From Ferrithrix thermotolerans DSM 19514 (lineage in GTDB: Bacteria; Actinomycetota; Acidimicrobiia; Acidimicrobiales; Ilumatobacteraceae): a DNA stretch of 64,000 bases. The DNA is taken from contig CAMDBM010000002.1 in the NCBI GenBank assembly GCA_945889085.1, positions 9,745 to 73,744 on the forward strand, in the 5' to 3' direction. This document shows, in pieces, positions 9,583 to 50,229 of the stretch (its first letter is position 1; the number at the start of each line of letters is the position of its first letter). A model generated the notes under the pieces. The model saw only the letters and a list, made by a program, of their open reading frames with translations. It did no database searches and was not told the DNA's origin. Made by a program: the position numbers and the translations under genes.

Positions 9583-10437
9583 GTGGGGAACACCGTTCGA
9601 ATCACGTTCCACGGCGTCCGTGGGTCGACGCCGTGTCACGGTGACGAAGTCCGTCGGTACGGCGGGAACACGTCATGCGTGTCTGTTGACGCGCCCGGGG
9701 AGGACCCGCTCGTGTTCGACCTCGGCACCGGATTGCGCTACTTCGGCCGAAACCAACCCCACGACGGATCGTTCCGAGGAACGTGCCTGCTCACGCACCT
9801 GCACTGGGACCACACCCAGGGTCTCCCGTTCTTCGTCCCGATCCTGCGCGATGGCGCCAAGCTCGACATCTACGGGCCAACCCAGGAGGACGGGGCCACG
9901 GTCCGTACCGCGATGAGCCGCTTCATGGCGCCCCCACACTTCCCGGTGGAGCTGGACAAGCTTCCCGGTGCGATCAACTTCTTCGATGTGGGCGACCACG
10001 ATTTCTTCGTCGGGGGCTTCGCCGTCCGGTCGCGCCTCATCCCCCATGTTGGCAACACGCTCGGCTTCCGGGTGGAGTGGAACGGGCTGTCGATTGCCTA
10101 CCTGTCGGACCACCAACAGCCCTACGACGGTTCGTTCGGCGCCACCGACGGGGCGATGGACCTTGTACGCGGTGCCGATCTCGTGATCCACGATGCGCAG
10201 TACACGCCTGAAGAGTTCGAGATGAAGAGCACGTGGGGTCATTGCACGGTTGATTACGCCGTGTGGCTCGCCGCAACAGCGGGCGCCAAGCGTCTTGCTC
10301 TGTTCCATCACGACCCGACCCGTCATGACGACGATGTGGACGCGCTGCTGTGCGCGGCGCGCGAGTCCGGCCGTGAACAGGGTGTGGAGGTCTTCGCTGC
10401 AAGCGAGGGTCTCACCGTGTCGCTCGACGCTGCCTGA
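9583..10437 (+). CDS. MBL-fold metallo-hydrolase
   Basis: Metal-binding motif HLHWDHTQG and a later HHD near the C-terminus. Confidence 0.85.
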   Translation: MGNTVRITFHGVRGSTPCHGDEVRRYGGNTSCVSVDAPGEDPLVFDLGTGLRYFGRNQPHDGSFRGTCLLTHLHWDHTQGLPFFVPILRDGAKLDIYGPTQEDGATVRTAMSRFMAPPHFPVELDKLPGAINFFDVGDHDFFVGGFAVRSRLIPHVGNTLGFRVEWNGLSIAYLSDHQQPYDGSFGATDGAMDLVRGADLVIHDAQYTPEEFEMKSTWGHCTVDYAVWLAATAGAKRLALFHHDPTRHDDDVDALLCAARESGREQGVEVFAASEGLTVSLDAA

Positions 10438-36640: not shown

Positions 36641-36669
36641 TTGCCAGAGCGTGGTGGACCGACTACAGT
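36641..36669 (+). promoter_or_regulatory. candidate housekeeping-sigma promoter for the pilin gene
   Basis: TTGCCA-N17-TACAGT, about 80 nt upstream of pilin ATG 36752. Confidence 0.35.
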
Positions 36670-36751
36670 ACGTAGCAGTCAAGGGACACCGTCAGCGTCT
36701 CGTGGACCGAGGGTGGCAACTCCGCCACTCAACAAGTTGGAGGGAACTTAC

Positions 36752-37099
36752 ATGGACCGCAAAGCACTCATCGCCAAGAAGCGCAAGGACAAGGGCTTCA
36801 CGCTCATCGAATTGCTCATCGTCATCGCCATCCTCGGCATCCTCAGCACCATCGTCGTGCTGTCGGTCCGTGGTATCCAGGACCGTGGCCAGTCGTCTGC
36901 CTGCTCCAGCGACAAGAAGTCGCTCGAGACCTCTTACGAGACGGCTCTCGCCAACGGCCTCGACCTGACCACCCCGGTCGCCGCCGACGTGTCCAGCTCG
37001 CTGGTCGCCAACGGCTACCTGCACGCCGAGTCGGCCTGGTACAACGTCGGCTCAGACGGATCCGTGACTGTCAAGACGGGCGTCACGGCCTGCACCTGA
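36752..37099 (+). CDS. type IV (major) pilin with prepilin-type N-terminal cleavage/methylation motif
   Basis: GGAGGG RBS and leader MDRKALIAKKRKDKG|FTLIELLIVIAILGIL (class III signal peptide, E5). 115 aa, with a Cys pair. Confidence 0.85.
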   Translation: MDRKALIAKKRKDKGFTLIELLIVIAILGILSTIVVLSVRGIQDRGQSSACSSDKKSLETSYETALANGLDLTTPVAADVSSSLVANGYLHAESAWYNVGSDGSVTVKTGVTACT

Positions 37100-37125
37100 T
37101 GCACTGACGCAGCGACTTCGCTGAT

Positions 37126-37162
37126 GGGGGCCGGACCGCTTGGTCCGGCCCCCATTCGTTTT
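37126..37162 (+). terminator. intrinsic terminator after the pilin gene
   Basis: GGGGGCCGGACC-GCTT-GGTCCGGCCCCC (12-bp perfect stem, tetraloop) followed by ATTCGTTTT. Confidence 0.8.
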
Positions 37163-37217
37163 GGCCCCGTCACCCGCCTGCATGGTCTGCAGTGTGTGAG
37201 GGTGTGAGGGTGTGTCG

Positions 37218-37934
37218 TCAGCGCACGAGTTCGATACGGCGGCCTTGATCGTCCCATTGAGGGTCCTGAGGAAGCCGGGTGATTGCTTTGCCGGCGATCC
37301 TGCGGGCTGTCCAGAGCAAGGCTGCTGCGTTGAGGAGATGACGGAGCGAACTACCTCGAGGTGGCTGGGCCATCGCAAGCGCACGCAGTCCCGGAAGGCG
37401 GTCCTGGAGCAGGGCCAAGCGTTCCGCCGGACCATCGCTCCAGAAACTTGAAGTGGACGCGGCTCGGTCGGCGTTGAGGAGCAGGATGCTGAGGTCGGGG
37501 TTCCCGGAAAATATCCGGCGCTGGTGATACGCCTGAACCTCGGTGTCAACCTCGCGGATCCACCGGAAGCGTCGGTAGGCGAGCGGGGTCAGCCATGGCT
37601 CGAGCGCCTGCGCCTTTGTCATATTGGGCGCGTACAGGGCATCCCGGCTCGGCACCCGTGGGATCGCGATGCGTTGGGGCCAGCCCAACAGGTCCCGGGC
37701 ATCGTGGTCGCACGAGCGGTATCCCCCGAACGGTTTGTCCGGGAGGCCGATCGGTGCGTCGATCACGATGTAGAGGAACGACGGGCGATAGTCGATCACG
37801 TCGGCAAGCGACTCGAGGACAAAGGGCTCCTCGGGCACGATCGTGGCGGTGAAGAGTCGGGCCGGCTGGACCAACCATCCGCCCGGACACGGCACCACAC
37901 CGGCGAGCGGTTTGTAGGGGAGCGGCGGAGGCAT
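37218..37934 (-). CDS. DUF429-like protein (predicted RNase H-fold)
   Basis: VVPCPGGWLV...VIDAPIGLP...YRSCDHDARDLLG resembles the DUF429 pattern. It starts 20 nt after the pilT stop on the same strand. Confidence 0.55.
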   Translation of the reverse strand: MPPPLPYKPLAGVVPCPGGWLVQPARLFTATIVPEEPFVLESLADVIDYRPSFLYIVIDAPIGLPDKPFGGYRSCDHDARDLLGWPQRIAIPRVPSRDALYAPNMTKAQALEPWLTPLAYRRFRWIREVDTEVQAYHQRRIFSGNPDLSILLLNADRAASTSSFWSDGPAERLALLQDRLPGLRALAMAQPPRGSSLRHLLNAAALLWTARRIAGKAITRLPQDPQWDDQGRRIELVR

Positions 37935-37954
37935 GTCGGGTCAGGGGCGCTCGG

Positions 37955-39220
37955 TCAGCGCCGGCCGCCGAGGGGCACCTGACCCGCCCGCGCGAACCGG
38001 GGGTCCTGGATCTCCTTCGGGTACTGGCTCAGGCTGATCGCCTCTTCATAGGTGATGAGCCCGGCGCTCAGCACCGCGTTGATCGAGGACTCGAGCGTCT
38101 GCATGCCCTCGGCGGCACAGGTGGCAATCACGTTGCGGATCTGGCGAGTCTTTCCCTCACGGATGAGGTTGCGCACGGCGTCGTTGGCGAGCAGCACCTC
38201 GTACGCGCCGACACGGCCCTTCCCGATCCGCTTGGCGAGCCGCTGGCTCACGACGCCCTGAAGCACCGAGGACAACTGCGTCTGGATCTGGTCCCGGCGC
38301 TCGGCCGGGTAGGAGTCAACGATGCGGTCGATGGCCTGGGCGGCATCGTTGGTGTGCAGCGTGGCGAAAACGAGGTGACCGGTCTCGGCGAGGGTGAGGG
38401 TGATCGAGATCGACTCGAGATCCCGCATTTCGCCGAGGAGGATGACATCCGGGTCCTCGCGCAGCGCCGCACGCAGCCCATCCTCGAAGGTGCGCACGTC
38501 GGTGCCAACCTCGCGCTGGCTGACAAGGGCAGTGCTGTGGCGGTGCACGTACTCCACTGGGTCCTCGATCGTCAGGATGTGACACGGACGGTTCTGGGCG
38601 ATGCGGGAGATCAGAGCGGCTTGGGTCGTGGATTTACCCGAACCCGTCGGCCCCACGAACAGTACGAGACCGTACGGAAAGTTCATCACCCGCTGGACAC
38701 CGGCCGGAACGCCCAATTCCTCGAGCGTGGGGATGTAGCTCTGGATGGCGCGAAAGACCGCAGAGGGGTAGCCGCGCTGGTGGAACGCGTTGACACGAAA
38801 GCGCGAATCGTCGTCGAGCGCTACCGAGTAGTCCACCTGACGATCGTCGATGAACCGCGTCCAGAGCTCGTCGTTGAGCGAGGAGCGCAGCATTCGGTTG
38901 AGGCGGTCTGCGTCCATGGGCGGCTCGCCCTCGATAGGGAGCAGCGTCCCGTCGATGCGTGCCGAGGGAGGAACCTCAACGGTGAGGTGGAGGTCCGAGC
39001 CGCGGTTGGCGATGAGGTAGTTGAGCAGCCGCTCCAGTTCGGGGTCCAGTTGGTCGCCCGTTGGGGCCAACGACGGCTTGGGGGGTGTCCAGCTGTCGAG
39101 GGAACGATCCGGCTGCGGGGTGCCCGCGGCTGCCCGGTAGAGCAGCGAGAAGTCGTCCTCGGGCGCGTCGACAATAGGTCGGCCCGGCTGATGGGCGTGG
39201 GGTTGTCCGTCAGCGTTCAT
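37955..39220 (-). CDS. pilT: type IV pilus retraction ATPase PilT (with a ~65-aa N-terminal extension)
   Basis: AGGAG RBS, SDLHL, Walker A GPTGSGKSTT, Asp box, Walker B ILLGEMRD, and His box ATLHTNDA. Confidence 0.9.
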   Translation of the reverse strand: MNADGQPHAHQPGRPIVDAPEDDFSLLYRAAAGTPQPDRSLDSWTPPKPSLAPTGDQLDPELERLLNYLIANRGSDLHLTVEVPPSARIDGTLLPIEGEPPMDADRLNRMLRSSLNDELWTRFIDDRQVDYSVALDDDSRFRVNAFHQRGYPSAVFRAIQSYIPTLEELGVPAGVQRVMNFPYGLVLFVGPTGSGKSTTQAALISRIAQNRPCHILTIEDPVEYVHRHSTALVSQREVGTDVRTFEDGLRAALREDPDVILLGEMRDLESISITLTLAETGHLVFATLHTNDAAQAIDRIVDSYPAERRDQIQTQLSSVLQGVVSQRLAKRIGKGRVGAYEVLLANDAVRNLIREGKTRQIRNVIATCAAEGMQTLESSINAVLSAGLITYEEAISLSQYPKEIQDPRFARAGQVPLGGRR

Positions 39221-39243
39221 CAATACTCCTAGGCTGCATTGCA

Positions 39244-40008
39244 GTGTTCGTGACCTTGCTCGTAGTGCTCGGCGTTCTTTCCGGCTCGTATCTCGGCGTT
39301 GTTGCCGACCGTCTGCCCCGTGAGGAGCGCACCAGCACCGGCCGCTCCCATTGTGACGCATGCGGGGCGGCACTCCGGTGGTTCGAGCTCATCCCGATCC
39401 TGTCGTGGCTGGTGCAGCGGGGTCGCTGCCGTCGGTGCGGGGCGTCCATCACGTGGGCGCCGCTCCTCATGGAGATCCTGACGGGCACCCTGTTCGGGGC
39501 AATGGGGGCGCGGTTCGGTTTCCACCTCGAGACCGCTGCCTTCGTGGTGCTGGTGGGCGTGCTGATGCCGCTCGGCCTGATTGACCTGCGGACCAAGCGT
39601 CTTCCCCGTCAATTGATCTACGTGGCCGGCGCGCTCGGAGCGCCACTGCTCGTTGTTGCGGCGCTGATCGCGGACGAACCACAACGGATCTGGTGGGCGG
39701 CGGTCGGTGGCGGTGGGGCCCTTGCGTTCTTCCTCGCGCTCTATCTCGGTTGGAGCGGCGGTATGGGTGACGGCGATGTTCGTCTCGCCGGACTGCTCGG
39801 CATGTACCTCGGGTGGATCGGGCTCTCGCACGTGCCGATCGGTCTGTTCCTCGGCTTCCTGCTGGGCGCCGTCGTCGGGGTGGCGTTGATCGCCCGCAAT
39901 GGCGGTGATCGCAAGACGGCCATCCCGTTCGGTCCGTTCATGGCGATGGGCGCCGTGGTCACGGTTCTCTGGGGCCGGAACATCGTGCATCTCTGGCTGG
40001 GGCACTGA
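39244..40008 (+). CDS. pilD: prepilin peptidase (A24 family)
   Basis: CDAC...CRRC zinc-binding pairs, catalytic Asp motifs GMGDGDVRLAG and IPFGPFMAMG. Polytopic. Confidence 0.9.
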   Translation: MFVTLLVVLGVLSGSYLGVVADRLPREERTSTGRSHCDACGAALRWFELIPILSWLVQRGRCRRCGASITWAPLLMEILTGTLFGAMGARFGFHLETAAFVVLVGVLMPLGLIDLRTKRLPRQLIYVAGALGAPLLVVAALIADEPQRIWWAAVGGGGALAFFLALYLGWSGGMGDGDVRLAGLLGMYLGWIGLSHVPIGLFLGFLLGAVVGVALIARNGGDRKTAIPFGPFMAMGAVVTVLWGRNIVHLWLGH

Positions 40009-40040
40009 GTACGGACGCTCCGGAGTGACCGCTGACGCGG

Positions 40041-42071
40041 TCATTGCACTTCCCAGGTGTTCACGGCGTACGCGCCGTTCTGGTTCACCTGCACGATGGC
40101 GATCGAGGACTCTCGCCCGCTCGAGCGTGACTCGATCCGGAACACCCGTTGGACGACGGCTTCGACAAAGCCGATGGGAACGGTTTGCAGGCCGGTTGCC
40201 CGGGCATCGGTCACGTCGAACTGGGCAGCGAGCACCCCACTGGTCATGCGCACATCCAGCCCGAAAGGGTTGTTCACCCGAAGCCGACCCTGGGGGATGC
40301 TCACATAACCCGGAATGAGGATGCTCGACGATGACGAGTTCGCGAGATCGATCTCGACGACAGCGGTTGGCTGGTACAGCGCGCCGACGACAGGGGGAGT
40401 GCTCGGGATCGTTGATGCCCCGGCCGTTGGGGTCACCGCGGTGCTTGCTGCTGAGGCCACCGAATCACCGGCGGCGTTCGTGGCGACCACCGTGAACGTG
40501 TACGCCGTCCCATTCGTCAGGCCGACGAAGTCGCACTGCAGCGTAGGAGGGGGTGAGGTGGACGCCGACAGGGTGCACGCGAGGCCTTCCGGCGACGAGG
40601 TGACGCGGTAGGACGTCACCGGAGCGGTCGTTGTGGCTGCAGCGGTCCAGGACACGCGGGCTGCCCCGGAGTAGGCAACAGCGGTCGGCGTGGCAGGCGC
40701 AGTCGGAACGGCCAGCGCGGTGCTCGATACTGCCGGGGTGATGGCCGACGAGGCCGACGAGGCTGACGAGTCACCGACCACGTTGCTGGCGACGACCGAG
40801 AAGGTGACGGCCGAACCGTTCGCGAGGCCGGTGACAGCGCACGCCGTGGACCCAGAGGTGGTGCAGGTTGCTCCCGATGACGAGGTGACGCGGTATCCGG
40901 TGATCGAACTGCCGCCCGACGAGGGTGCGGACCACGACACGACCGCCGCGCCGTTGTAGGCCGTGGCGACGACGCCTGTGGGCTTGCTGGGGACTGAGGG
41001 CTTGGCGTGAAAGTTCGATGGCGTGTAATCCGCGCTGGTGGCGCTCACCGGGTCGACGTTGCCGACCAGCGAATAGGGGATACTCAACGCTCCGCTCCCG
41101 CTCCACGTGAGATCCTGGGCTGACTGCGACGGGGTGCCGTTCACGGACGCGATACTCAGTCCGGCCGAGGTGTCCGTGTCAGCCTCGGCGGCGCTCACGT
41201 ACCGTGAGTTGAGCACGAGGGAGGGTCCGAGTGAGGCCGTATTCGTCACCAGCAGGCGGCCGTTCTTGCCGAAGATCAGGGTGCCGCCCAGGCCGCTGAT
41301 GTTGTGCGTGACCGGGGCGTCGACTGCGTAGAACGCAGCATCCTGATCGGTCGAGCATCCCTCCGTGGCCCCGAGGCCGACGACAACCGACGCTCCGTTC
41401 TGAACTGTCAGCGTGTTCTCGAAGTAGTAGATGCCCGACGCGAAGTAAGTCGGTCCGATGAGGGTGACGGCGTCGGTGTAGGTGCCCGGGAAGTACACCG
41501 TGCAGGTGGTGAAGCCCGCCGGCATCTGGAAGCCACCGGGGGATCGCCGGTCGAGGGAGTGGATCGGCAGGTTGGGCAGCCAGATGCGGTTGGTCTCGGA
41601 GAACTGGGTGGTTGCGGTTCTCCACTCCGAAGCCGACTCGGGGTTGGCCGGCGAGTAGCGCGCCCCGGTCAGAGCGCTCGGGATCGCCGACCCGACCTGG
41701 GTGGCGACGAGGCCGTAGCGCAGTTCGTTCGAGTCCTGTGCAGTCTGGTAATCGAGGAAGTAGCAGCGCGTGGTCACGCTCTTGCCGCTGGTCGTGGTGC
41801 CCGCAAGCGTCACCGCCACTGTTGGTCCGGCGTTGCCGCACGTGCGATACAGCGCTGCCGGATCGGCGAGGGCAATCCGCGTTCCTGCCTTGACCGCCTC
41901 GAGGCGGGCGGTCTTCGCGCTCAGCACGGAGTTCGACCGCAGGACGGTCTGTTGGTAGGAAAGAAGTGGGATGATCACCAGCGACACCACGATGGTGAAG
42001 ATCATGACGAGGAGGAGTACCGAACCTTCGTCCTCGTTCGGTCGCTTCCGGCGCCGGGGGGAGGACACCAT
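40041..42071 (-). CDS. large pilus-associated protein with a PilX_N-like hydrophobic N-terminus and two FN3-like repeats
   Basis: The start ATG overlaps the upstream stop (TGATG). N-terminus DEGSVLLLVMIFTIVVSLVII. There are two tandem ~90-aa repeats of the form VSW...Y.V.S....C.....C...GL.NG.A.TF.V.A.N..GDS (nt 40428..40991). Confidence 0.6.
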   Translation of the reverse strand: MVSSPRRRKRPNEDEGSVLLLVMIFTIVVSLVIIPLLSYQQTVLRSNSVLSAKTARLEAVKAGTRIALADPAALYRTCGNAGPTVAVTLAGTTTSGKSVTTRCYFLDYQTAQDSNELRYGLVATQVGSAIPSALTGARYSPANPESASEWRTATTQFSETNRIWLPNLPIHSLDRRSPGGFQMPAGFTTCTVYFPGTYTDAVTLIGPTYFASGIYYFENTLTVQNGASVVVGLGATEGCSTDQDAAFYAVDAPVTHNISGLGGTLIFGKNGRLLVTNTASLGPSLVLNSRYVSAAEADTDTSAGLSIASVNGTPSQSAQDLTWSGSGALSIPYSLVGNVDPVSATSADYTPSNFHAKPSVPSKPTGVVATAYNGAAVVSWSAPSSGGSSITGYRVTSSSGATCTTSGSTACAVTGLANGSAVTFSVVASNVVGDSSASSASSAITPAVSSTALAVPTAPATPTAVAYSGAARVSWTAAATTTAPVTSYRVTSSPEGLACTLSASTSPPPTLQCDFVGLTNGTAYTFTVVATNAAGDSVASAASTAVTPTAGASTIPSTPPVVGALYQPTAVVEIDLANSSSSSILIPGYVSIPQGRLRVNNPFGLDVRMTSGVLAAQFDVTDARATGLQTVPIGFVEAVVQRVFRIESRSSGRESSIAIVQVNQNGAYAVNTWEVQ

Positions 42072-44473
42072 CAGTCCCGTCTCACCGTCAGCGTGCACGA
42101 GATAGCGGCGTTCGCAGGCACACGGACCCGGATGCCTGTCCACTGACTCTGCCCCGCAATAGCGATCGAGGTATAAGACAGCGCAGTGATCCCCGCCTTG
42201 CAGGCCCACGAAACGGGCTCGTAGCCGTTCAGATCCGAGTAGTTCTGCGGGATGATGTCGACATCGACGTACTGCCCGTTGGGGATCGTGAAGTCGAAGG
42301 TGCCGGTCGTGAACTGTTGGTTCGTGGTGACGACGCGTGGTTCTACGTTCAGCGCTGCACCACTGGAGTCGGTAACGGTGGAGTTCTCGTAGCGGAACGG
42401 GTCGGCGACGGCCGCGGAGCCGACTTTGGTCTGGAGCGTGAGCGTGCCGCCGCACACGCCGAGCGACACCGCCTGCATCGCCGTGGCGAACTGGGACCAC
42501 TGGGGCAGGACGTACATGTCCGCAAGCTGGGTGTTGGTGTAGGAGGTTCCGTCGAATGCGGCAGGCGTGCCGTAGTCGTTCCCGGCGATGAGCCTCGCGA
42601 GGATGACGCTGTTCGCAGTGGTCGCGGTGACCGCCGGGTCGTACGCCTCGTACGGCGGGCTGTTGTACACCTTGGTGGAGCGGTACTCGGTGGTCGCCCC
42701 CGAGGAGCGTGAGCCCGTCCACATCTCCCAGTCCGGCCCTGCCGCATAGGTCTTGGTGACCGCCCGGTAGGTGGAATTGCCTGAATTCGCCTGATACTCA
42801 ACGGTCGATACCGGGCTGGTGGTGACGACCACCTTCGCCCCGTCCGTAGTGCTCGTATTGATCGGGTTCTCGACGGTGAGGTACTCGGCCTGCGTCACGT
42901 TCGTCCAGCCGAGGTCCCGGCGGCGGTTTGTCGCTGTCGTTGCATAGGTGTTGTAGTTCACCCAGGACCAGAACTGGGTGGTGGTGTTCCGCGCCTGGTA
43001 GCGGAGTTGGTACGACGTGATGTCCCGCACGTACGAGTACGAGCCCCGCTCCCACTGGGTGCGGTAGCCGGCACCCGGGTCCACGATCCAGTTGGAGGAC
43101 CCGGAGATGCCGGTGCCGACACCGACCCCGATGATGCGCGCACTGGTGCGGAACTCGTCTGCCAGGAATCGTGCACGGTCGAATGCGACCTGGTTGTAGG
43201 CGCTGCCGTTCGCTGTCGGCCACGGAGCACCCAGCGCGGCCGGGTCGGTGGGCAGCACACCCGGCGACGTGCGCCGCACGAGACGGTCGAAGGTGGGCAC
43301 GCCGTCGGTAAAGAACACGATGGTCTTGGGCACCAGACCGGTCGTGGTGGCATCGGACTGGCGCAGGGTCCGGAACAGCGCCTCCTCCCAGTTCGTGCCG
43401 CCGTTGGGACTGGATGACCACGTGCCCTGCAGAGTGTCGATCGCGGTCAGCAGGGTAGAAACCTCGCTGTCCTTGGTCATGTCCCAGTACTTCTGCCAAG
43501 ACGTCGTGCCGAGCACGTGCGAGTAGGTGTGGAATCCGATGATCTGGATCTTCACCGGCGTGCCCACGAGCGTCTGCACAAACTGCTTGACGCCGGCACG
43601 AACCTGGGTGATTGACGTTCCGATCGAGTTGGACTCGTCGACGATCACTGTGATGTTGCCGCCGCAACGACTGCGCACGTCGGCAAAGGACGGGGCGCCC
43701 TGAAGACTTTTCGAGTCGATATTCGAACGGACGGCGCCACCTGCGGTGATGCTGATCTGGTTGATACCGCCGCCCGGGCCGGCCGCGCTGCCGCCGCCGT
43801 TGATCGTGACAACGACGCGGTTCGAGTTCTTCAGGTCGGCGACGGTTGCGACCTGGGTTTCGTTAATTGCATCCGCTGCGAGTGGCTGGCTCACCGTGAT
43901 GACCCAGTCCGGGTTCGTGCAGTTCAGGGTGCTGCCCACCGACGAACAGCCCGAGCCATTCGCCACACCCGCCACGAACGTTTCTCCACCCGGCGGCCTG
44001 GGCAGGTTGCGGAGCACGGTAGTGGTCTCGCAGTTCCAGGCCCCTGCGTCGATGGTGCTGCACTTCACACGCCGAAGGGAGTACGTGCCGTCCGCGGCGG
44101 GGAAAAAGTTGTACGACACCTTGGTGATCGCCGTACCAGTCGCCCCCCTGGTACTCCATGAGAGCATGATCACGTTCGAGCCCTCGGCGAGGTTCACCCC
44201 ATCGCACACGGTCGAGCCGCACGGTGTCGACTCCGGCTTGGTATCCACCGACTCGGCCGACGACAGGTCAGCAGGCAGCCACAGGCTCACGTTCTGCTCG
44301 GAACGGGCAACCTCGGTTCGGCCTTGGGTGTTGCCGATCTGTCGGAAGACGATGATCACAGCAGCCGCAACAACCGAGCCAACGATCCCCAGCACGGCAA
44401 CGGAGACGAGCAACTCCACCAGCGTCATGCCCCTGTCCGGGTTCCTGCCACTATTCAGTCGACGTCTAGACAT
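42071..44473 (-). CDS. modular type IV pilin: prepilin N-terminus fused to a vWA (MIDAS) domain and a large C-terminal region
   Basis: DRG|MTLVELLVSVAVLGIV (E5). The MIDAS triad is VDESNS, a conserved T in GGTNWEEAL, and FFTDG (about nt 43093..43660). 800 aa. Confidence 0.75.
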   Translation of the reverse strand: MSRRRLNSGRNPDRGMTLVELLVSVAVLGIVGSVVAAAVIIVFRQIGNTQGRTEVARSEQNVSLWLPADLSSAESVDTKPESTPCGSTVCDGVNLAEGSNVIMLSWSTRGATGTAITKVSYNFFPAADGTYSLRRVKCSTIDAGAWNCETTTVLRNLPRPPGGETFVAGVANGSGCSSVGSTLNCTNPDWVITVSQPLAADAINETQVATVADLKNSNRVVVTINGGGSAAGPGGGINQISITAGGAVRSNIDSKSLQGAPSFADVRSRCGGNITVIVDESNSIGTSITQVRAGVKQFVQTLVGTPVKIQIIGFHTYSHVLGTTSWQKYWDMTKDSEVSTLLTAIDTLQGTWSSSPNGGTNWEEALFRTLRQSDATTTGLVPKTIVFFTDGVPTFDRLVRRTSPGVLPTDPAALGAPWPTANGSAYNQVAFDRARFLADEFRTSARIIGVGVGTGISGSSNWIVDPGAGYRTQWERGSYSYVRDITSYQLRYQARNTTTQFWSWVNYNTYATTATNRRRDLGWTNVTQAEYLTVENPINTSTTDGAKVVVTTSPVSTVEYQANSGNSTYRAVTKTYAAGPDWEMWTGSRSSGATTEYRSTKVYNSPPYEAYDPAVTATTANSVILARLIAGNDYGTPAAFDGTSYTNTQLADMYVLPQWSQFATAMQAVSLGVCGGTLTLQTKVGSAAVADPFRYENSTVTDSSGAALNVEPRVVTTNQQFTTGTFDFTIPNGQYVDVDIIPQNYSDLNGYEPVSWACKAGITALSYTSIAIAGQSQWTGIRVRVPANAAISCTLTVRRD

Positions 44474-44921
44474 CGCTCTTCACCACCTGGATGCTTCGCT
44501 GTACCCGGCCGTCCGGGCTTCTTACGGTGACACTGACGCGTTGCACGAGGAGGTCGGCGAGCGCCCCAGCGGGGCAGGCGGGCGAACTTGTTGGTCCGGC
44601 GGTCCAGGTGCCGGGCGACGTCGGGTCGATCGCCGGTTGGTAGTACTCCTGGGCGACCGTGGCCGCGGAGGCTGCCCAGCCCTCGGTCTGCACGGCGGCC
44701 TGCGCATACGCGCTGTAGTCGCAGGATTTCGGTGCACGGTTGACGCGGTCGGCGGCGTTCACGATGACGGTCTCGACCCGCGCACCCGATCGGGTGACGG
44801 CCGAAGTTGTCACCGAGGTGATGACCGCCGTGAGCACGGCGATGATCACGATGCCCATGAGCATGATCACGATCACGACCTCGACGAGCGAGAAGCCCTC
44901 GTCGAGCTGTCGGGGCCTCAT
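44466..44921 (-). CDS. minor pilin (prepilin-type N-terminal cleavage/methylation domain)
   Basis: GGAGGAG RBS, DEG|FSLVEVVIVIMLMGIV (E5), 151 aa. ATGA overlap with pilC. Confidence 0.75.
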   Translation of the reverse strand: MRPRQLDEGFSLVEVVIVIMLMGIVIIAVLTAVITSVTTSAVTRSGARVETVIVNAADRVNRAPKSCDYSAYAQAAVQTEGWAASAATVAQEYYQPAIDPTSPGTWTAGPTSSPACPAGALADLLVQRVSVTVRSPDGRVQRSIQVVKSDV

Positions 44922-46135
44922 CCTGTCTCCTCCGCCTTGAACCCGTTGAGGACGCCGTACATGGCAGAGACGAGGGCGATAGCAACGAAACCGACCGCCG
45001 CACCGACCATCAGGATGGTGAACGGCTCGAACATCGAGGTAAAGCGACGGATCTTCACCTCGAGTTCGCGGTTGAAGTACTCCGACGCAGAGGCCAACTG
45101 GTCGTCGAGGGTTCCGGTCTCCTCGCCGACCTTCATCATCTGGCGGGCAGCGCCGGGGAACAGGCCGGTCTCGATGAGGGGGCGGGCGAGCCCGGCCCCG
45201 CTCACCATTGCCTGGCGCGAGATCTCGAGTTTTTCCTGGAAAATGAGGTTCCCGGTGGACTTGGTGGTGACCTCCATGGCCTCGGGCAGCGAGACACCGG
45301 CCTTGGTCATTGTGGACAGGATGAGGCAGAAGCGCTCGAGGATCGAGTACTGGATGATCTCGCCGAGCACGGGGAGTTTCAGGATCATCTTGTCCTTGGC
45401 CCGCCTACCGGCCGGGGTCATCGCCATCCAGATGAGCATCAGCACGAACATGAACACGAACCCGACCGGGATATAGAAGAAGTCGGTGAGGAACCCGGTC
45501 ATCCCCAGGAGCAGTTTGGTGGGGAGCGGGAGGTCCGAGCCGAGTTCGTCGAACAGCGCCTTGAACTGGGGGAGCACCACCACGGCGAGGATCCCGATCG
45601 TGATGATCGCGAGGCCGAAGACGACCGCCGGATAGACGAGGGCGGCGATCACCTTGGAACGGGCAGTGATCTCCCGGTCGAGGTACGAGGTGAGCTGGTC
45701 GATGGTCTCGTCGAGGTTGCCCGTGAGCTCGGCAGACTTCAGCACACCGAGGTAGTACTTCGGGAACGCCTCGGGGTGCATGGCAGCGGCATCTGCGAAC
45801 GTGGAGCCCCCGCGCAGCTTGTCCGCAAGGTCGGCGAGCACGCGGCGCAGCACCTTGTCGTGGGCCTCATCGGCGATCGTCTCGAGGGAGTCGATGATGG
45901 GGATGCCGGCCCGCAGGAACACGGCGAGCTGACGAGAGAAGTGCATGAGCTCACGCTTTTTCAGCTTCTCGCTGGTGAGTTCGAGGTTCAGCCGGCTCTT
46001 GGGCTCGCCAATCTTGATCGGGAACAGTGATTTGTCCTGCAGCCACGAACGGACGTCGCCGATGGTGTCGCGCTTGAGCGAACCCTTAACGGTATTACCG
46101 GTGGCGTCGACGGCGACGTAGTGGAACTTCGGCAT
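44918..46135 (-). CDS. pilC: type IV pilus platform protein PilC (GspF family)
   Basis: Two T2SSF repeats, three TM segments, and N-terminus MPKFHYVAVDATGNTVKG. Confidence 0.9.
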   Translation of the reverse strand: MPKFHYVAVDATGNTVKGSLKRDTIGDVRSWLQDKSLFPIKIGEPKSRLNLELTSEKLKKRELMHFSRQLAVFLRAGIPIIDSLETIADEAHDKVLRRVLADLADKLRGGSTFADAAAMHPEAFPKYYLGVLKSAELTGNLDETIDQLTSYLDREITARSKVIAALVYPAVVFGLAIITIGILAVVVLPQFKALFDELGSDLPLPTKLLLGMTGFLTDFFYIPVGFVFMFVLMLIWMAMTPAGRRAKDKMILKLPVLGEIIQYSILERFCLILSTMTKAGVSLPEAMEVTTKSTGNLIFQEKLEISRQAMVSGAGLARPLIETGLFPGAARQMMKVGEETGTLDDQLASASEYFNRELEVKIRRFTSMFEPFTILMVGAAVGFVAIALVSAMYGVLNGFKAEETG

Positions 46136-46143
46136 GGACTACC

Positions 46144-47886
46144 TCAGCCTGCGTAGAGCGTTCGGACGACTTCGCCGATGGTGCTCACGTCGTTCTCCAC
46201 CAGCGTGAGTGCCTCGTCCACGAGGGTCCGCATGCCCTGGGACACCGCAAGGCGACGCAGTTCCTCCTGCGTGGCCCAACCAACGATCAGCCGTCGCAGT
46301 TCGGGCGTGACGCGCAGCAGTTCGTACACGCCGATGCGGTCGCGGTAGCCGGTGCCGGCGCAGAAGGTGCAGCCCGCCCCGTGCCAGAACTGGCTCTTCG
46401 GGTTGCGGCCCTCACGGTTCCACACAGCGATCTCCTCGGGCCCGGGCTCGTAGGGCTCCTTGCAGGCGTCGCAGATACGACGGAGGAGACGCTGGCCGAT
46501 GACGGCAACGACGGAGGACGCGATGAGGAACGACTCGATGCCCATGTCGAGCATGCGGTGGAGCGCCGCCACCGAGTCCGTGCCGTGGAGCGAGGAGAGC
46601 ACGAGGTGGCCGGTGAGCGCAGACTGCACGGCGATGCGGGCGGTGTCTGCGTCGCGAACCTCTCCCACGAGGATCACGTCCGGGTCCTGGCGCAGGATTG
46701 CCTTGAGGCCCTGCGCAAAGGTGAGCCCGGCCTGCTCGTTGGTCTGGATCTGGTTGATGCCGGGGAACACGTACTCCACCGGGTCCTCGATCGTCATCAC
46801 GTTCTTGCCGCCGTCGTTGATGGCACGCAGCGTGGCGTAGAGCGTCGTGGTCTTTCCGGCACCCGTGGGCCCGGCGCAGATGACCATGCCGAATGGCGCA
46901 TGGATGAGCTTGGACCACTCCTCGTAGGTGGCGCCCGGCATGCCGAGTTGCCTCAACTCCAGCGCAGCGCGGCTCTTGTCGAGCAGTCGCATGACGACCT
47001 TCTCGCCGAACACGGTTGCCAGCGACGACACGCGGACGTCCATGTCCCTGCCGTCGACCGTCATCGAGAACTGCCCGTCCTGGGGCCTGCGACGTTCCAC
47101 GATGTTCATGCCACCGAGGATCTTGTACCTGCTCACGAGGGCAGCGTGTGCCGACAGCGGGAGCGTGAAGGTATCGACCATGTTGCCGTCGATGCGGAAT
47201 CGGATGCGGATGTGGTCGTTCATCGGCTCGACGTGTACGTCCGATGCGCGGTCGCGCAGGCCCTGGGCGATGATCCGGTTTGCGATCTGGACGACGGGGG
47301 CGTCTTCGTCGTCGCTCTGCTGCGATGCGGCGAGCAGGGCCTGGGTGGAGTCGCTGGCTTCGAAGGCTCTGCTGAGGGCGTCGATCTCGGCGTCGGCCCG
47401 GTACATCCGGTCGAGCGTGTTGGAGATGTCCTGCTCCATCGCCACCTTGAACACGACGGTCCCGGTGAACTTCGCGGCGACTGCTGCGCGCGCTGTCTGG
47501 CACGGGTCTGCGATCGCCACGTGGGCGCCGTTCGCGTCAGCCGTGAGTGGCAGGCACTTCAGCAGGCGACAGGTGCGCTCGTCGAGAAGCGAGACGGCGT
47601 CCTCGTTGGGAGTGGTCTGGCGCAGGTCCAGCATCTCGAGGCCGTGGAAGCCGGCCCAGACACTGACCATGTTGGAACGGTTGGCCCCGCGACGCTCGGT
47701 CTTGAAGAGCAGGGCGATCAACTCGGACTCCGACTGCGGTTCGGCACCCTTGGCGATGGCGAGGTCGGCCGGCGACACGGCCTCGGCGGCCACGAGAGCC
47801 TGAGCAAGTTCGTCAACCTGACCGTCGCGGGGACGAATTGCTTCGACCGCCGTCGCAGCCGTCTGTGAGCGCCCGCGAAATGCCAT
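46144..47886 (-). CDS. pilB: type IV pilus assembly ATPase PilB (GspE family)
   Basis: T2SSE_N domain, Walker A GPTGAGKTTT, Walker B ILVGEVRD, and tetracysteine CDAC...CTFC. Confidence 0.9.
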   Translation of the reverse strand: MAFRGRSQTAATAVEAIRPRDGQVDELAQALVAAEAVSPADLAIAKGAEPQSESELIALLFKTERRGANRSNMVSVWAGFHGLEMLDLRQTTPNEDAVSLLDERTCRLLKCLPLTADANGAHVAIADPCQTARAAVAAKFTGTVVFKVAMEQDISNTLDRMYRADAEIDALSRAFEASDSTQALLAASQQSDDEDAPVVQIANRIIAQGLRDRASDVHVEPMNDHIRIRFRIDGNMVDTFTLPLSAHAALVSRYKILGGMNIVERRRPQDGQFSMTVDGRDMDVRVSSLATVFGEKVVMRLLDKSRAALELRQLGMPGATYEEWSKLIHAPFGMVICAGPTGAGKTTTLYATLRAINDGGKNVMTIEDPVEYVFPGINQIQTNEQAGLTFAQGLKAILRQDPDVILVGEVRDADTARIAVQSALTGHLVLSSLHGTDSVAALHRMLDMGIESFLIASSVVAVIGQRLLRRICDACKEPYEPGPEEIAVWNREGRNPKSQFWHGAGCTFCAGTGYRDRIGVYELLRVTPELRRLIVGWATQEELRRLAVSQGMRTLVDEALTLVENDVSTIGEVVRTLYAG

Positions 47887-47971: not shown

Positions 47972-48961
47972 CTACTCTGGGTGGCTTTCCCGGCGAAGAT
48001 TGTCGATAATCTGACGCAGCGTGTCAAGATCGCTGCGCATAGCGTAATCTGCGGGGTCAACTTCGGCGAGGACACGCTCGAATTCCTCGGCCCGCTCGAG
48101 TTGCAGATCGAGGTCCGTGCGCTGGTTCAGCACCAACTCGGCCGCCACCACCCGGTCATTCATCCCCATCACCGTGTCGGTCAGGGCGCTGAACTGCGAG
48201 GGGAGGGGCCCGAGCGGACCCATGGCGTTCGTGAGGGCCGCCACCTGGGACTCCAGCCCGGCAATCGTGGTCAACCCGGCGCGCAGCGTGTCGGCGATCG
48301 TCTCCGCCTCCCGTTGGCCGGTGAGCACCTGTTCCCGCAGAGCTGCAGCGTCGGTGAGCTGCTGGTGAGCAAGTGCACCGGTGGCATCCGTGCGCAGGGC
48401 CAGTTTCTCCACGGCGTCACGGATCGCCCGAATCGTGGAACTCATACGTTCGACGATGTCGCCGAGCTCCACACGGAATGTCTCGAACGCATCGACACGA
48501 CCGGACAGCATGCGGGCACTTACCTCGAGCTGATCCACCCGGCCCTCGGACTGGGCGAGGCGTGTCGCCTGTTCCGAGGCAATCGCCCCGACAGCCGACT
48601 CGACTGCATCGACTCTCGCCCCAAAGGTCTCGTCCTGGCGCTTCTGCTGGCGTCGCACCACGTCGAGGACCCCGACCTGGCGGCGGTAGTCCTCCTTTGC
48701 CTGGGCCCTCACGGCCTCGAACTCGGCCCCGGTCGCCTCGTTCTGGGCGGTGATGAGCGCCGTGGTGGCGGCGATGCGTAACTCCAGATCCTCCACCAGA
48801 CGCTGGTGCAAGTCGCTCAGCCCGTCGATGCGGGCCTCGGCCGCCGACAGCCGGTCAGTGGCGTCTCTGGGCACGCCACGGCGCAGCAGACGTTTGCGCT
48901 CGCGTCCCCCTCTTGCCATTGAACGAACTGTACTTCCGGGCCGCACGGGGACCGGGGACAC
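47972..48961 (-). CDS. coiled-coil hypothetical protein
   Basis: Long heptad-like Ala/Glu/Arg/Leu-rich sequence with no recognisable catalytic motif. Alternative ATG start at 48919. Confidence 0.5.
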   Translation of the reverse strand: MSPVPVRPGSTVRSMARGGRERKRLLRRGVPRDATDRLSAAEARIDGLSDLHQRLVEDLELRIAATTALITAQNEATGAEFEAVRAQAKEDYRRQVGVLDVVRRQQKRQDETFGARVDAVESAVGAIASEQATRLAQSEGRVDQLEVSARMLSGRVDAFETFRVELGDIVERMSSTIRAIRDAVEKLALRTDATGALAHQQLTDAAALREQVLTGQREAETIADTLRAGLTTIAGLESQVAALTNAMGPLGPLPSQFSALTDTVMGMNDRVVAAELVLNQRTDLDLQLERAEEFERVLAEVDPADYAMRSDLDTLRQIIDNLRRESHPE

Positions 48962-48982
48962 CGGACGACCGGCTGTCGCAGG

Positions 48983-49390
48983 TCAGACGGCCGGCGAGGT
49001 GCGTGCACGCCGCACGCGGCCGGCGAGACAGGCCAGCGAGGTGAGGGCGCCCGCACCAGCGAGGATGGCTTCGCCCACGGCGACCGAGGGGCTGCGGCCA
49101 GCATCCACGATGGCGAAGGTGCCGAGGGCGGCCACCCCGAGGGCAGCGGCAATCGGCCAGCGACGCCAGTTCGCTGCTGCCGCACACGTGACGAGGAGCG
49201 GGGCGAGGAAGGCGAGCGGGGACTCCCACGAGGCGGTGGCTGCGTCGCTCAACCACCACGTCGGCTTTCCGAAGGAGTTTGCGGCATCGGCCAGTGTCAG
49301 CAGCGCCGGGATGATGAGGGCCCATCCGACGGCGAGCACCCAACGCCAGCCCTCGGTGAGCTGGCCGGGTCGGTAGTCGGTCTCACTCAT
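48983..49390 (-). CDS. small integral membrane protein, hypothetical
   Basis: Four predicted hydrophobic segments. No family recognised. Confidence 0.5.
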   Translation of the reverse strand: MSETDYRPGQLTEGWRWVLAVGWALIIPALLTLADAANSFGKPTWWLSDAATASWESPLAFLAPLLVTCAAAANWRRWPIAAALGVAALGTFAIVDAGRSPSVAVGEAILAGAGALTSLACLAGRVRRARTSPAV

Positions 49391-49443: not shown

Positions 49444-50229
49444 GTGCCGAACCGATACCCTTGCGCCCCGATGCCTACCTCCACCGGCCCCTCGTTCGGC
49501 ACGCTGTCGATCTTCTTCCCGATGTGGAACGAGGAGGCATACGTGCACCGTGCGATCAACGCTGCCACGACGGCCTGTGTGGAGCTCATGGCTGCCGGTG
49601 AGATCGACAACTACGAGCTCATCATCGTGGACGATGCCTCCACCGATGCAACACCCCGGCTCGCCGACGAACTCGCTGCCGCAAACCTCCATGTGAAGGT
49701 GGTCCATCACCCCGTCAACCGCAAGCTCGGCGGTGCCATGAAGACCGGCTTCGCGGCTGCGACCGGCGACCTCGTGCTGTACACCGATGCAGATCTGCCC
49801 TTCGACATGGCCGAGATCGGCAAGGCATGCCGCATCATGCGCCTCTACGAGTCCGACATCGTGAGCGCCTATCGGCACGACCGCACGGGCGAGGGAGCCG
49901 CGCGCGAGATCTACACGTTCTTCTACAACTTCCTCATCCGGAGGTTGTTCGGGGTTCGGATGCGGGACATCAACTTTGCGTTCAAGCTGTGCCGGCGCAG
50001 CATCTTCGAGCACATCTCGCTGGTGAGCGAGGGCTCGTTCATCGACGCGGAACTCATCATCCGCGCCAAGAAACTCGGTTTCGAGGTCACCCAGTTCGGC
50101 GTCGATTACTTCCCGCGTACCCGGGGTGTCTCCACGCTCAGTTCGCCGAAAGTGATCCTGAAGATCGTCCGCGAGATGTTTGCGCTCCGCAAGAAACTCC
50201 GAAATATTCAGCCGGTCGTCAAGCGCTGA
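49444..50229 (+). CDS. family 2 glycosyltransferase (polyprenol-phosphate sugar synthase-like)
   Basis: LSIFFPMWNEE, IIVDDASTDAT and YTDADLPFD. The start may instead be ATG 49471. Confidence 0.85.
   Translation: MPNRYPCAPMPTSTGPSFGTLSIFFPMWNEEAYVHRAINAATTACVELMAAGEIDNYELIIVDDASTDATPRLADELAAANLHVKVVHHPVNRKLGGAMKTGFAAATGDLVLYTDADLPFDMAEIGKACRIMRLYESDIVSAYRHDRTGEGAAREIYTFFYNFLIRRLFGVRMRDINFAFKLCRRSIFEHISLVSEGSFIDAELIIRAKKLGFEVTQFGVDYFPRTRGVSTLSSPKVILKIVREMFALRKKLRNIQPVVKR

Follow-up and report, generated by a model that had tools for sequence, protein, structure and literature searches.

A putative type IVa-like pilus cluster with PilT and a PilT-linked DUF429 protein, but without PilM, PilN and PilO, in a freshwater member of the Acidimicrobiia

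Type IVa pili (T4aP) have been described in Firmicutes and Actinobacteria (PMC6668835, PMC6916266), and pil operons that include pilT are found across Gram-positive bacteria (PMC3244431). Within the Acidimicrobiia, UBA5794 carries pilABCEMOTY1 together with Tad genes (PMC12008989). A PilT-equipped pilus in an actinobacterium is, as such, already known. The subcomplex of PilM, PilN and PilO (PilMNO) has been called specific to Tfpa, and it is treated as a hallmark of T4aP that is essential even in single-membrane (monoderm) bacteria (PMC6916266). Here, we analysed a stretch of 64,000 nucleotides (nt; referred to as the window) from positions 9,745 to 73,744 of contig CAMDBM010000002.1 in assembly GCA_945889085.1, which contains a cluster of nine pilus-related genes at 36752-47886. 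From its genes, we consider that this cluster probably encodes a working type IVa-like pilus, assembled and retracted, of a single-membrane member of the Acidimicrobiia, and that the machine in this family would run without the PilMNO subcomplex.

Gene identities were assigned from the list of open reading frames (ORFs) and from Pfam, NCBIfam and PDB searches. They bear out, for all nine genes, the annotations given in a preliminary description of this DNA, apart from one PilX_N label that is discussed below, and all nine reading frames are intact (Table 1). The retraction ATPase groups with true PilT proteins, both on the TIGR01420 model and in the PDB, where the best matches are the PilT structures of Aquifex, Geobacter and Pseudomonas at about 320 bits (267 bits for PilU). 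It shows the Walker A motif GPTGSGKS, the Asp box VILLGEMRD, the His box GHLVFATLHT and the PilT signature AVRNLIRE. The extension ATPase PilB carries GPTGAGKT and the tetracysteine zinc motif CDAC...CTFC, and its best PDB match, Geobacter PilB (5tsg, 386 bits), aligns from end to end, N-terminal domains included, while GspE structures (353 bits) align at the ATPase core only, which is a slight preference for PilB. On the NCBIfam models the same protein reaches 511 bits against PilB, in a full-length match, and 518 bits against GspE, both below the equivalog cut-offs (630 for GspE), and 267 bits against ComGA, for which the cut-off is 300. The prepilin peptidase PilD contains the motifs CxxC...CxxC and GDGD. 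In terms of T4aP features, the cluster thus holds a PilB with an N-terminal domain and zinc motif, a single PilC, PilD, T4a-type pilins and PilT.

None of the models PF11104 (PilM), PF05137 (PilN) and PF04350 (PilO) found a match in the whole genome, which is labelled G000 (G-numbers denote genomes, C-numbers contigs of G000 and L-numbers the individual loci compared). The search for a secretin (PF00263/PilQ) likewise gave nothing in the whole genome, the best E-value being 0.1. The PilQ secretin belongs to diderm systems and is not expected in a single-membrane cell. The lack of pilMNO and secretin genes that had been pointed out for the window is correct, and these searches extend it to the entire assembly. 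We also built a custom PilM profile from seven PilM sequences of Acidimicrobiia and one divergent PilM of Chloroflexota. When it was run on all six frames of G000, the sole match was MreB; this 39.7-bit match, on contig C15, sits within an mreBCD-pbp2-rodA operon and was discarded as a PilM candidate. PilN and PilO of Acidimicrobiia, used as phmmer queries, found nothing in the six frames of G000 at E<=10, and as a positive control they retrieved each other at E-values of 1e-9 to 1e-44.

The absence of PilM is shared by relatives. It was found in the twin genome G001 (99% identical), in the close relative G002 and in all eight PilT-positive genomes sampled from the family, G000 included; the remaining seven have a completeness of 98-99%, three being assembled as single contigs. 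Accordingly, incompleteness of the metagenome-assembled genome (MAG) is an unlikely cause of the missing PilMNO. Among ten other actinobacterial genomes with a related PilB locus, eight had no PilM. Two larger genomes titled Ilumatobacteraceae hold both kinds of locus, and their PilM lies in a second complete locus with its own PilB, PilT and PilC. A PilM match in G004 had been taken as a candidate part of locus L009, but according to blastn this gene belongs to a second pilus locus on a different contig.

The gene that follows pilT encodes a DUF429 protein. In the window it begins 20 nt past the pilT stop, and every Acidimicrobiia locus long enough to show the region has DUF429 after pilT. 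The start of DUF429 adjoins or overlaps the stop of pilT, and in several loci (for example L012, L013, L020 and L021) the overlap is 4 nt. A scan of metagenomes with a DUF429 alignment returned 80 loci (L099-L178); 48 of them include 700 nt or more of upstream sequence, and in 47 of these PilT is directly upstream. G000 also holds a canonical DUF429 paralogue (G000:C8:60155-60724), which scores 144 bits on the family model as against 85 for the PilT-linked copy. When 10 canonical paralogues were aligned with 12 PilT-linked sequences, all 10 canonical proteins retained GxDGC..GW, IDxPIG, EVHPE and DDxLDA. In the PilT-linked proteins, the Asp of strand 1 is replaced by Val or Thr in 12/12, the Asp of IDxP is retained in only 3/12, and EVHPE and DDxLDA are degenerate. 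DUF429 has been assigned to the RuvC-like clade D of the RNase H superfamily, and its active-site residues have been predicted to lie on strands 1 and 4 (Majorek et al. 2014, PMC3985635).

A structural model of the PilT-linked protein, computed with AlphaFold2 (AF2) from a 78-sequence alignment, has a predicted local distance difference test score (pLDDT) of 94, and the six PDB structures that Foldseek ranks highest are RuvC resolvases (with a probability of up to 0.97, E 0.03, target template modelling score 0.54-0.56). Judged from this model, the resemblance between DUF429 and RuvC is at the fold level only. It replaced a first AF2 model made from 12 sequences, which had a pLDDT of 60.6 and gave only noise in Foldseek. 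A PDB sequence search with the DUF429 protein gave no match, and the idea that it represents one half of the actin-like PilM in cryptic form was abandoned after an hhalign profile comparison returned a probability of 0.08%. The PilT-linked DUF429 is most likely a nuclease-fold protein that no longer cuts and a non-catalytic partner or regulator of PilT; we infer this role from the pairing with PilT and from the lost catalytic motifs. A literature search for DUF429 in connection with pili found nothing specific.

Quick maximum-likelihood trees were computed for 30 PilT and 87 PilB sequences, with branch support from the Shimodaira-Hasegawa-like approximate likelihood ratio test (SH-aLRT). The two trees agree in that one branch, with a support of 98-100, splits the sequences into two clades. 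On the one side are the window-type Acidimicrobiia together with Micromonosporaceae (L022), other Actinomycetota (L024, L071) and Chloroflexota/Dormibacterota (L025-L030); on the other side are the PilM-linked loci of Acidimicrobiia together with diderm phyla such as Planctomycetota, Pseudomonadota and Aquificota, and others. We compared ten PilM-bearing loci from other Acidimicrobiia (L089-L098). In six of the ten, PilM(N) and PilO are preceded by PilB or PilT along with PilC, pilins and PilD, and in L095 and L096 the retrieved stretch shows only PilD and PilMNO. As side observations on L087-L098, PilM and PilN are often fused (550-590 aa), and the gene after PilO encodes a further protein, some 195-230 aa long with a single membrane helix; in several loci, aroC and aroK come next. 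In L087 and L088, PilB and PilT are split over several frames, possibly through long-read assembly errors.

To place the cluster within the phylum, we used an even sample of Actinomycetota comprising 401 genomes of 249 genera. PilT-family genes above the cut-off occur in 298 of the 401 genomes and in 207 of the 249 genera, and PilM occurs in 279 of the 401. With these numbers, and with the earlier papers on pilT-containing systems (PMC3244431, PMC6668835, PMC6916266, PMC12008989), the earlier implication that a PilT-equipped T4aP is unusual in this phylum is not supported. The state with PilT but no PilM belongs to a minority: 306 genomes have a PilT match at E<=1e-30, and of these at least 27, or about 40 according to a cross-check by hand, lack PilM. 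Several small-genome members of the family have no PilT at all. The literature was also searched for pili of Ilumatobacter and for actinobacterial pili without PilM, with no specific result.

The gene order is kept across Acidimicrobiia at PilB identities of 53-99%, and the core order PilB-PilC-PilD(-)-PilT-DUF429-pilin recurs on 80 metagenome contigs from freshwater, soil and marine sources. Compared with the relative L002 (PilB 87% identical), the nine proteins are 69-87% identical, and 29-48% of the identical residues are encoded by different codons. The cluster is clearly under purifying selection and is maintained.

Three class III signal peptides that had been proposed (G/FTLIE, G/FSLVE and G/MTLVE, the slash marking the end of the leader) were confirmed, and in the whole genome canonical N-termini of the form G/[FM][TS]L[IV]E occur only in these three proteins of the cluster. 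In the major pilin the signal peptide reads MDRKALIAKKRKDKG/FTLIE with a leader of 15 aa, and leaders of such length are found in other monoderms (PMC6916266). Its gene is conserved beside the cluster in relatives, and its N-terminus weakly matches the GspG, GspH and ComGC models. The 800-aa fusion of a pilin with a von Willebrand factor A (vWA) domain has a complete metal ion-dependent adhesion site (MIDAS), namely DESNS, GGT and TDG, and a PDB sequence search with it gave no match. The N-terminus of the 676-aa fibronectin type III (FN3) protein is pilin-like in shape only, since a basic stretch is followed by G/SVLLLV... without Glu5. The PilX_N domain that had been ascribed to this protein finds no match in Pfam even at E<=5, and the label was dropped. 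We consider the FN3 protein a probable PilX-like minor or tip component, and similar proteins occupy the same position in L022 and in L012-L021. Only the closer relatives have giant vWA and FN3 proteins, and some loci place vWA pilins elsewhere. A PilT-equipped system with modular pilins had been called poorly characterised in this phylum; vWA and FN3 modules are among the commonest modular pilin architectures and are widespread, and a vWA pilin is a proven adhesin of Streptococcus sanguinis (PMC8179133). The vWA/MIDAS and FN3 modules of the window speak for adhesion to proteins or particles, and the proteins that carry them would be adhesins.

Considering these components together, the pilus would probably operate as follows. 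Three proteins, the 115-aa major pilin and both canonical minor pilins, would have their class III leaders cleaved off by PilD, and the pilins would be polymerised by PilB while it is docked on the PilC platform. Priming or capping of the fibre would fall to both canonical minor pilins together with one PilX-like protein, and the vWA/MIDAS pilin (800 aa) and the FN3 protein (676 aa) would be displayed as adhesins at or near the tip. PilT would then depolymerise the fibre so that the pilus retracts, with the DUF429 protein acting as its non-catalytic partner or regulator. More tentatively, Actinomycetota and Chloroflexota might share a second PilT-powered lineage of type IV pili (T4P), which would be PilMNO-free in Acidimicrobiia and Micromonosporaceae and in which a dead RuvC-fold DUF429 would have become an obligatory partner of PilT in Acidimicrobiia. 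It belongs to this same tentative reading that DUF429 might, for example, dock or gate PilT at the PilC platform and so replace the PilM ring.

Several points weigh against a working pilus without PilMNO. PilMNO is essential for T4aP assembly in S. sanguinis, the one monoderm that has been studied systematically (PMC6916266), and therefore assembly without it in the present organism is an assumption. Loci of Chloroflexota/Dormibacterota that belong to the clade of the window contain, inside the cluster, a PilM-like gene that scores 28-36 bits against PF11104. The clade is thus not uniformly PilM-free, and loss of PilM is a feature of its actinobacterial branch only; a more divergent PilM analogue could also be hidden in the genome studied here, which is 93% complete. 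The trees are quick searches with SH-aLRT support only and contain no experimentally validated references, and NCBIfam does not separate PilB from GspE, both scores lying under their cut-offs. The organism is uncultured, and its pili are predicted from genes. As a side observation, in L025 and L026 the divergent PilM-like gene lies between the PilX-like/minor pilin genes and the major pilin (at about 13991-14899 in L026).

We weighed four other explanations. One, which overlaps with the reading as a type IVa-like pilus and does not exclude it, is that DNA uptake is the main job of the system, the fibre feeding ComEA and ComEC and DUF429 acting on the DNA, and we regard this as somewhat unlikely. 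It draws on the adjacent comEA and comEC genes on C36, on the use of PilT-driven retraction by DNA-uptake T4aP (PMC6370729), and on the RuvC-like nuclease fold of DUF429 (PMC3985635). On the other hand, ComEC and ComEA occur in most bacteria, including the non-competent control C. glutamicum, and are uninformative. Considering that the strand-1 Asp is lost in all 12 PilT-linked DUF429 sequences and that the other acidic motifs are degenerate, a nuclease role is unlikely. Moreover, modules of the adhesion type (vWA/MIDAS and FN3) are found in the operon's two largest products, and the characterised actinobacterial DNA-uptake pilus, that of M. luteus, is of the Tad/Flp type (PMC6916266), of which the present genome has two loci. 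An ordinary PilMNO-dependent T4aP, whose pilMNO genes were missed through gaps in the MAG or through divergence, appears improbable. The assembly is in 81 contigs and incomplete, PilN and PilO are short and poorly conserved, and the low scores of the PilM-like genes from Chloroflexota/Dormibacterota show that PilM drifts. However, no PilM was found in G000, G001, G002 and the seven further PilT-positive genomes of the family, and even the profile that includes the divergent Chloroflexota sequence matches only MreB. PilN and PilO of the same class find each other and nothing in G000, and the compact clusters of the relatives (PilB-PilC-PilD-PilT-DUF429-pilin) have no space for more genes. Where larger genomes titled Ilumatobacteraceae do have PilM, it sits in the second complete pilus locus.

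That the cluster is instead a secretion system or pseudopilus resembling the type II secretion system (T2SS) or Com, which forms no long surface pili, seems very improbable to us. PilB scores equally on the GspE and PilB models, and the N-terminus of the major pilin gives the weak GspG, GspH and ComGC matches mentioned above; but T2SS and Com have no retraction ATPase, whereas the window encodes a true PilT with AVRNLIRE. The genome has no secretin, PilB matches T4aP PilB over its full length and GspE structures at the ATPase core only, and its ComGA score stays under the cut-off, ComGA itself lacking the N-terminal domain. A decaying remnant without function is hardly credible. The loss of PilT in several small-genome members of the family would fit it, but the nine frames are intact, as are the ATPase, peptidase and MIDAS motifs. 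Strong synonymous divergence stands beside conserved proteins, and the gene order has been kept over family-level distances and in many environments.

Table 1. Coordinates of the pilus genes, regulatory signals and neighbouring genes in the window.
Feature	Coordinates	Strand	Evidence and remarks
Promoter-like TTGCCA-N17-TACAGT	36641..36669	+	9/12 match; 83 nt before pilin ATG, plausible position
Ribosome-binding site GGAGGG	36739-36744	+	Upstream of major pilin
Major pilin, 115 aa	36752..37099	+	N_methyl E=6e-11 / TIGR02532; leader MDRKALIAKKRKDKG/FTLIELLIVIAILGIL
GC-rich hairpin, 14-bp stem, then UCGUUUU	37124..37155	+	Between convergent pilin and DUF429 genes
DUF429, 238 aa	37218..37934	-	PF04250 85 bits (cut-off 23)
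PilT retraction ATPase, 421 aa from ATG at 39220	37955..39220	-	TIGR01420 428.9 bits, cut-off 319
PilD prepilin peptidase (A24), 254 aa	39244..40008	+	A24_N_bact E=1e-27, Peptidase_A24 E=3e-10
FN3 protein, 676 aa	40041..42071	-	fn3 E=9e-21, two stretches
Modular pilin-vWA fusion, 800 aa	42071..44473	-	N_methyl and VWA, leader end G/MTLVE, long C-terminal region
Minor pilin, 151 aa	44466..44921	-	G/FSLVE; weak N_methyl, GspH and PilV matches
PilC platform protein, 405 aa	44918..46135	-	T2SSF, two stretches, E=1.5e-47; PilC and GspF models
PilB extension ATPase, 580 aa	46144..47886	-	T2SSE and N-terminal MshEN
329-aa coiled-coil and 135-aa membrane protein	47972..49390	-	Directly upstream of pilB; no family match
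Promoter-like TTGACA-N17-GACAAT	47999..48027	-	10/12 match, consensus match only; 113 nt upstream of pilB ATG, within 3' end of coiled-coil gene
GT2-family glycosyltransferase	49444-50229	+	E=3e-28

On the minus strand, the genes follow the order pilB, pilC, 151-aa minor pilin, 800-aa pilin-vWA fusion and 676-aa FN3 protein. The gene overlaps that had been described for this string are present at three junctions, namely ATGA with a 4-nt overlap between pilC and the minor pilin, 8 nt between the minor pilin and the vWA pilin, and TGATG between the vWA pilin and the FN3 protein; pilB and pilC do not overlap and are separated by a gap of 8 nt. The exact start of pilT is uncertain, the longest ORF extending to 39373, and PilT carries an N-terminal extension, rich in Pro and about 60 aa long, which most relatives lack. 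The ATG of pilT (-, 39220) and the GTG of pilD (+, 39244) are separated by just 23 nt, so that either each promoter lies within the coding region of the other gene or the true starts differ.

A promoter with near-consensus hexamers had been proposed for the major pilin. The hexamers exist with the spacing given, but such sites are no commoner in the region than in shuffled sequence (2 found, 1.6 expected). The GGAGGG ribosome-binding site and the GC-rich hairpin are present. The stem, which had been given as 12 bp, measures 14 bp, and the folded 66-nt stretch at 37100-37165 reaches -41.9 kcal/mol (z = -7.1), with 0 of 200 shuffled sequences as stable. This hairpin probably acts as a terminator at the point where the pilin and DUF429 genes converge.

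The coiled-coil and membrane protein genes upstream of pilB keep that place in the nearest relatives only, namely in L001-L005 and, as a partial match, in L015. In L009, pilB is preceded by an analogous coiled-coil ORF of 433 aa, and none is present in L012-L021. With this distribution, the coiled-coil protein was rejected as a universal substitute for PilMNO, and the two proteins are possibly lineage-specific accessories.

The source assembly is a MAG of 2.66 Mb in 81 contigs with a completeness of 93%, and the host is a freshwater member of the Acidimicrobiia (Actinomycetota). The actinobacterial origin that had been suspected is supported by the titles of the PilB relatives: the window PilB is 99% identical to that of a locus in a freshwater metagenome record titled 'Actinomycetota bacterium', and the next relatives, at 53-92% identity, are titled Acidimicrobiia, Ilumatobacteraceae or Acidimicrobiaceae, names that fall under Actinomycetota. 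The GC content is flat at 64-67% over the whole window, and the flanking genes (L,D-transpeptidase, GT2 glycosyltransferase and small membrane protein) hold the same order in relatives, indicating that the cluster is resident rather than a recent island. In relatives, the GT2-family gene adjoins the small membrane protein and the L,D-transpeptidase. G000 has two further pilus loci, both of the Tad/Flp type, on C30 and C32, which fits an actinobacterium. The first (G000:C30:32920-35966) contains a CpaE-like gene, CpaF/TadA, a short TadB-like gene and a Flp-like pilin (…QATAEYALVLLGAAAI…), and the second (G000:C32:1075-6787) contains CpaB-like, CpaE-like, CpaF, TadB and TadC genes and two TadE-like genes. 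Genes for a DNA-import channel are also present, comEA (HHH_3) and comEC (Competence domain) being adjacent on G000:C36:13478-15011 (-).

How PilB and PilT alternate at the platform and what PilM, PilN and PilO contribute are open questions of T4P biology. A lineage without PilMNO would offer a small natural test case for a minimal retractile machine, and the invariant pair of PilT and DUF429 points to a candidate new accessory protein. The lineage is widespread in freshwater, soil and marine Acidimicrobiia, and a retractile adhesive pilus would bear on particle attachment or DNA uptake by abundant planktonic members of this class.

In comparison with known systems, the cluster shares with the T4aP of the monoderms S. 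sanguinis, C. perfringens and C. difficile the proteins PilB, PilC, PilD and PilT, pilins with G/FxxxE, the clustering of the genes and the lack of a secretin. Modular minor pilins are shared as well, among them a vWA/MIDAS pilin that resembles S. sanguinis PilB (PMC6916266, PMC8179133). These systems, however, contain and require PilM, PilN and PilO, whereas the genome of the window has none of the three; in addition, the window pilT is coupled to a DUF429 gene, and its PilB and PilT fall in another clade than those of PilM-linked loci from the same class. The PilMNO-linked loci of other Acidimicrobiia and of most sampled Actinomycetota likewise have PilB, PilT, PilC, PilD and pilins. In those of Acidimicrobiia, the identity to the window proteins is only 39-43% for PilB, 45-49% for PilT and 29-32% for PilC. 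PilMNO-linked loci follow the order PilB-PilT-PilC-pilins-PilD-PilM(N)-PilO, several of them ending at aro genes, have no DUF429 and form a separate clade in the trees.

The nearest relative outside the Acidimicrobiia is the Micromonosporaceae cluster L022, which lies in the same clade (PilB 50%, PilT 51%). It shares the layout of the window cluster, with a pilin, PilT, PilB, PilC, two minor pilins, a large PilX-like protein and, on the opposite strand, PilD, and the source genome has no PilM, PilN or PilO. It differs in that DUF429 is not beside pilT and that no vWA or FN3 modules were detected in the minor proteins. The type IV pili of the zoospores of Actinoplanes missouriensis, a member of the Micromonosporaceae, have reportedly been studied experimentally by Kimura and colleagues (J Bacteriol, 2019), and we infer that the cluster of these zoospore pili may be the same as the L022-type cluster.

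Tad/Flp (type IVc) pili belong to the same superfamily and are present in the same genome (C30, C32), but they are built with CpaF/TadA, TadB and TadC and small Flp pilins and have no PilT, whereas the window cluster has no Tad parts. The ComG pseudopilus uses a short ComGA without the N-terminal domain and has no PilT, in contrast to the 580-aa PilB with MshEN and the PilT found here. T2SS is set apart by the GspE model score under the cut-off, the missing secretin and the presence of PilT; GspL and GspM were not searched separately. Canonical DUF429 proteins share with the PilT-linked subfamily the PF04250 match and the RuvC-like model, but only the latter has lost the catalytic motifs. Since PilMNO, a defining feature of T4aP, was searched for and not found, we do not file the cluster as a standard T4aP. 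We regard it as a T4aP-like variant, which most likely works in the same way. What is distinctive about it is the combination of a PilMNO-less actinobacterial branch of a separate PilB/PilT lineage with an invariant, degenerate DUF429 companion.

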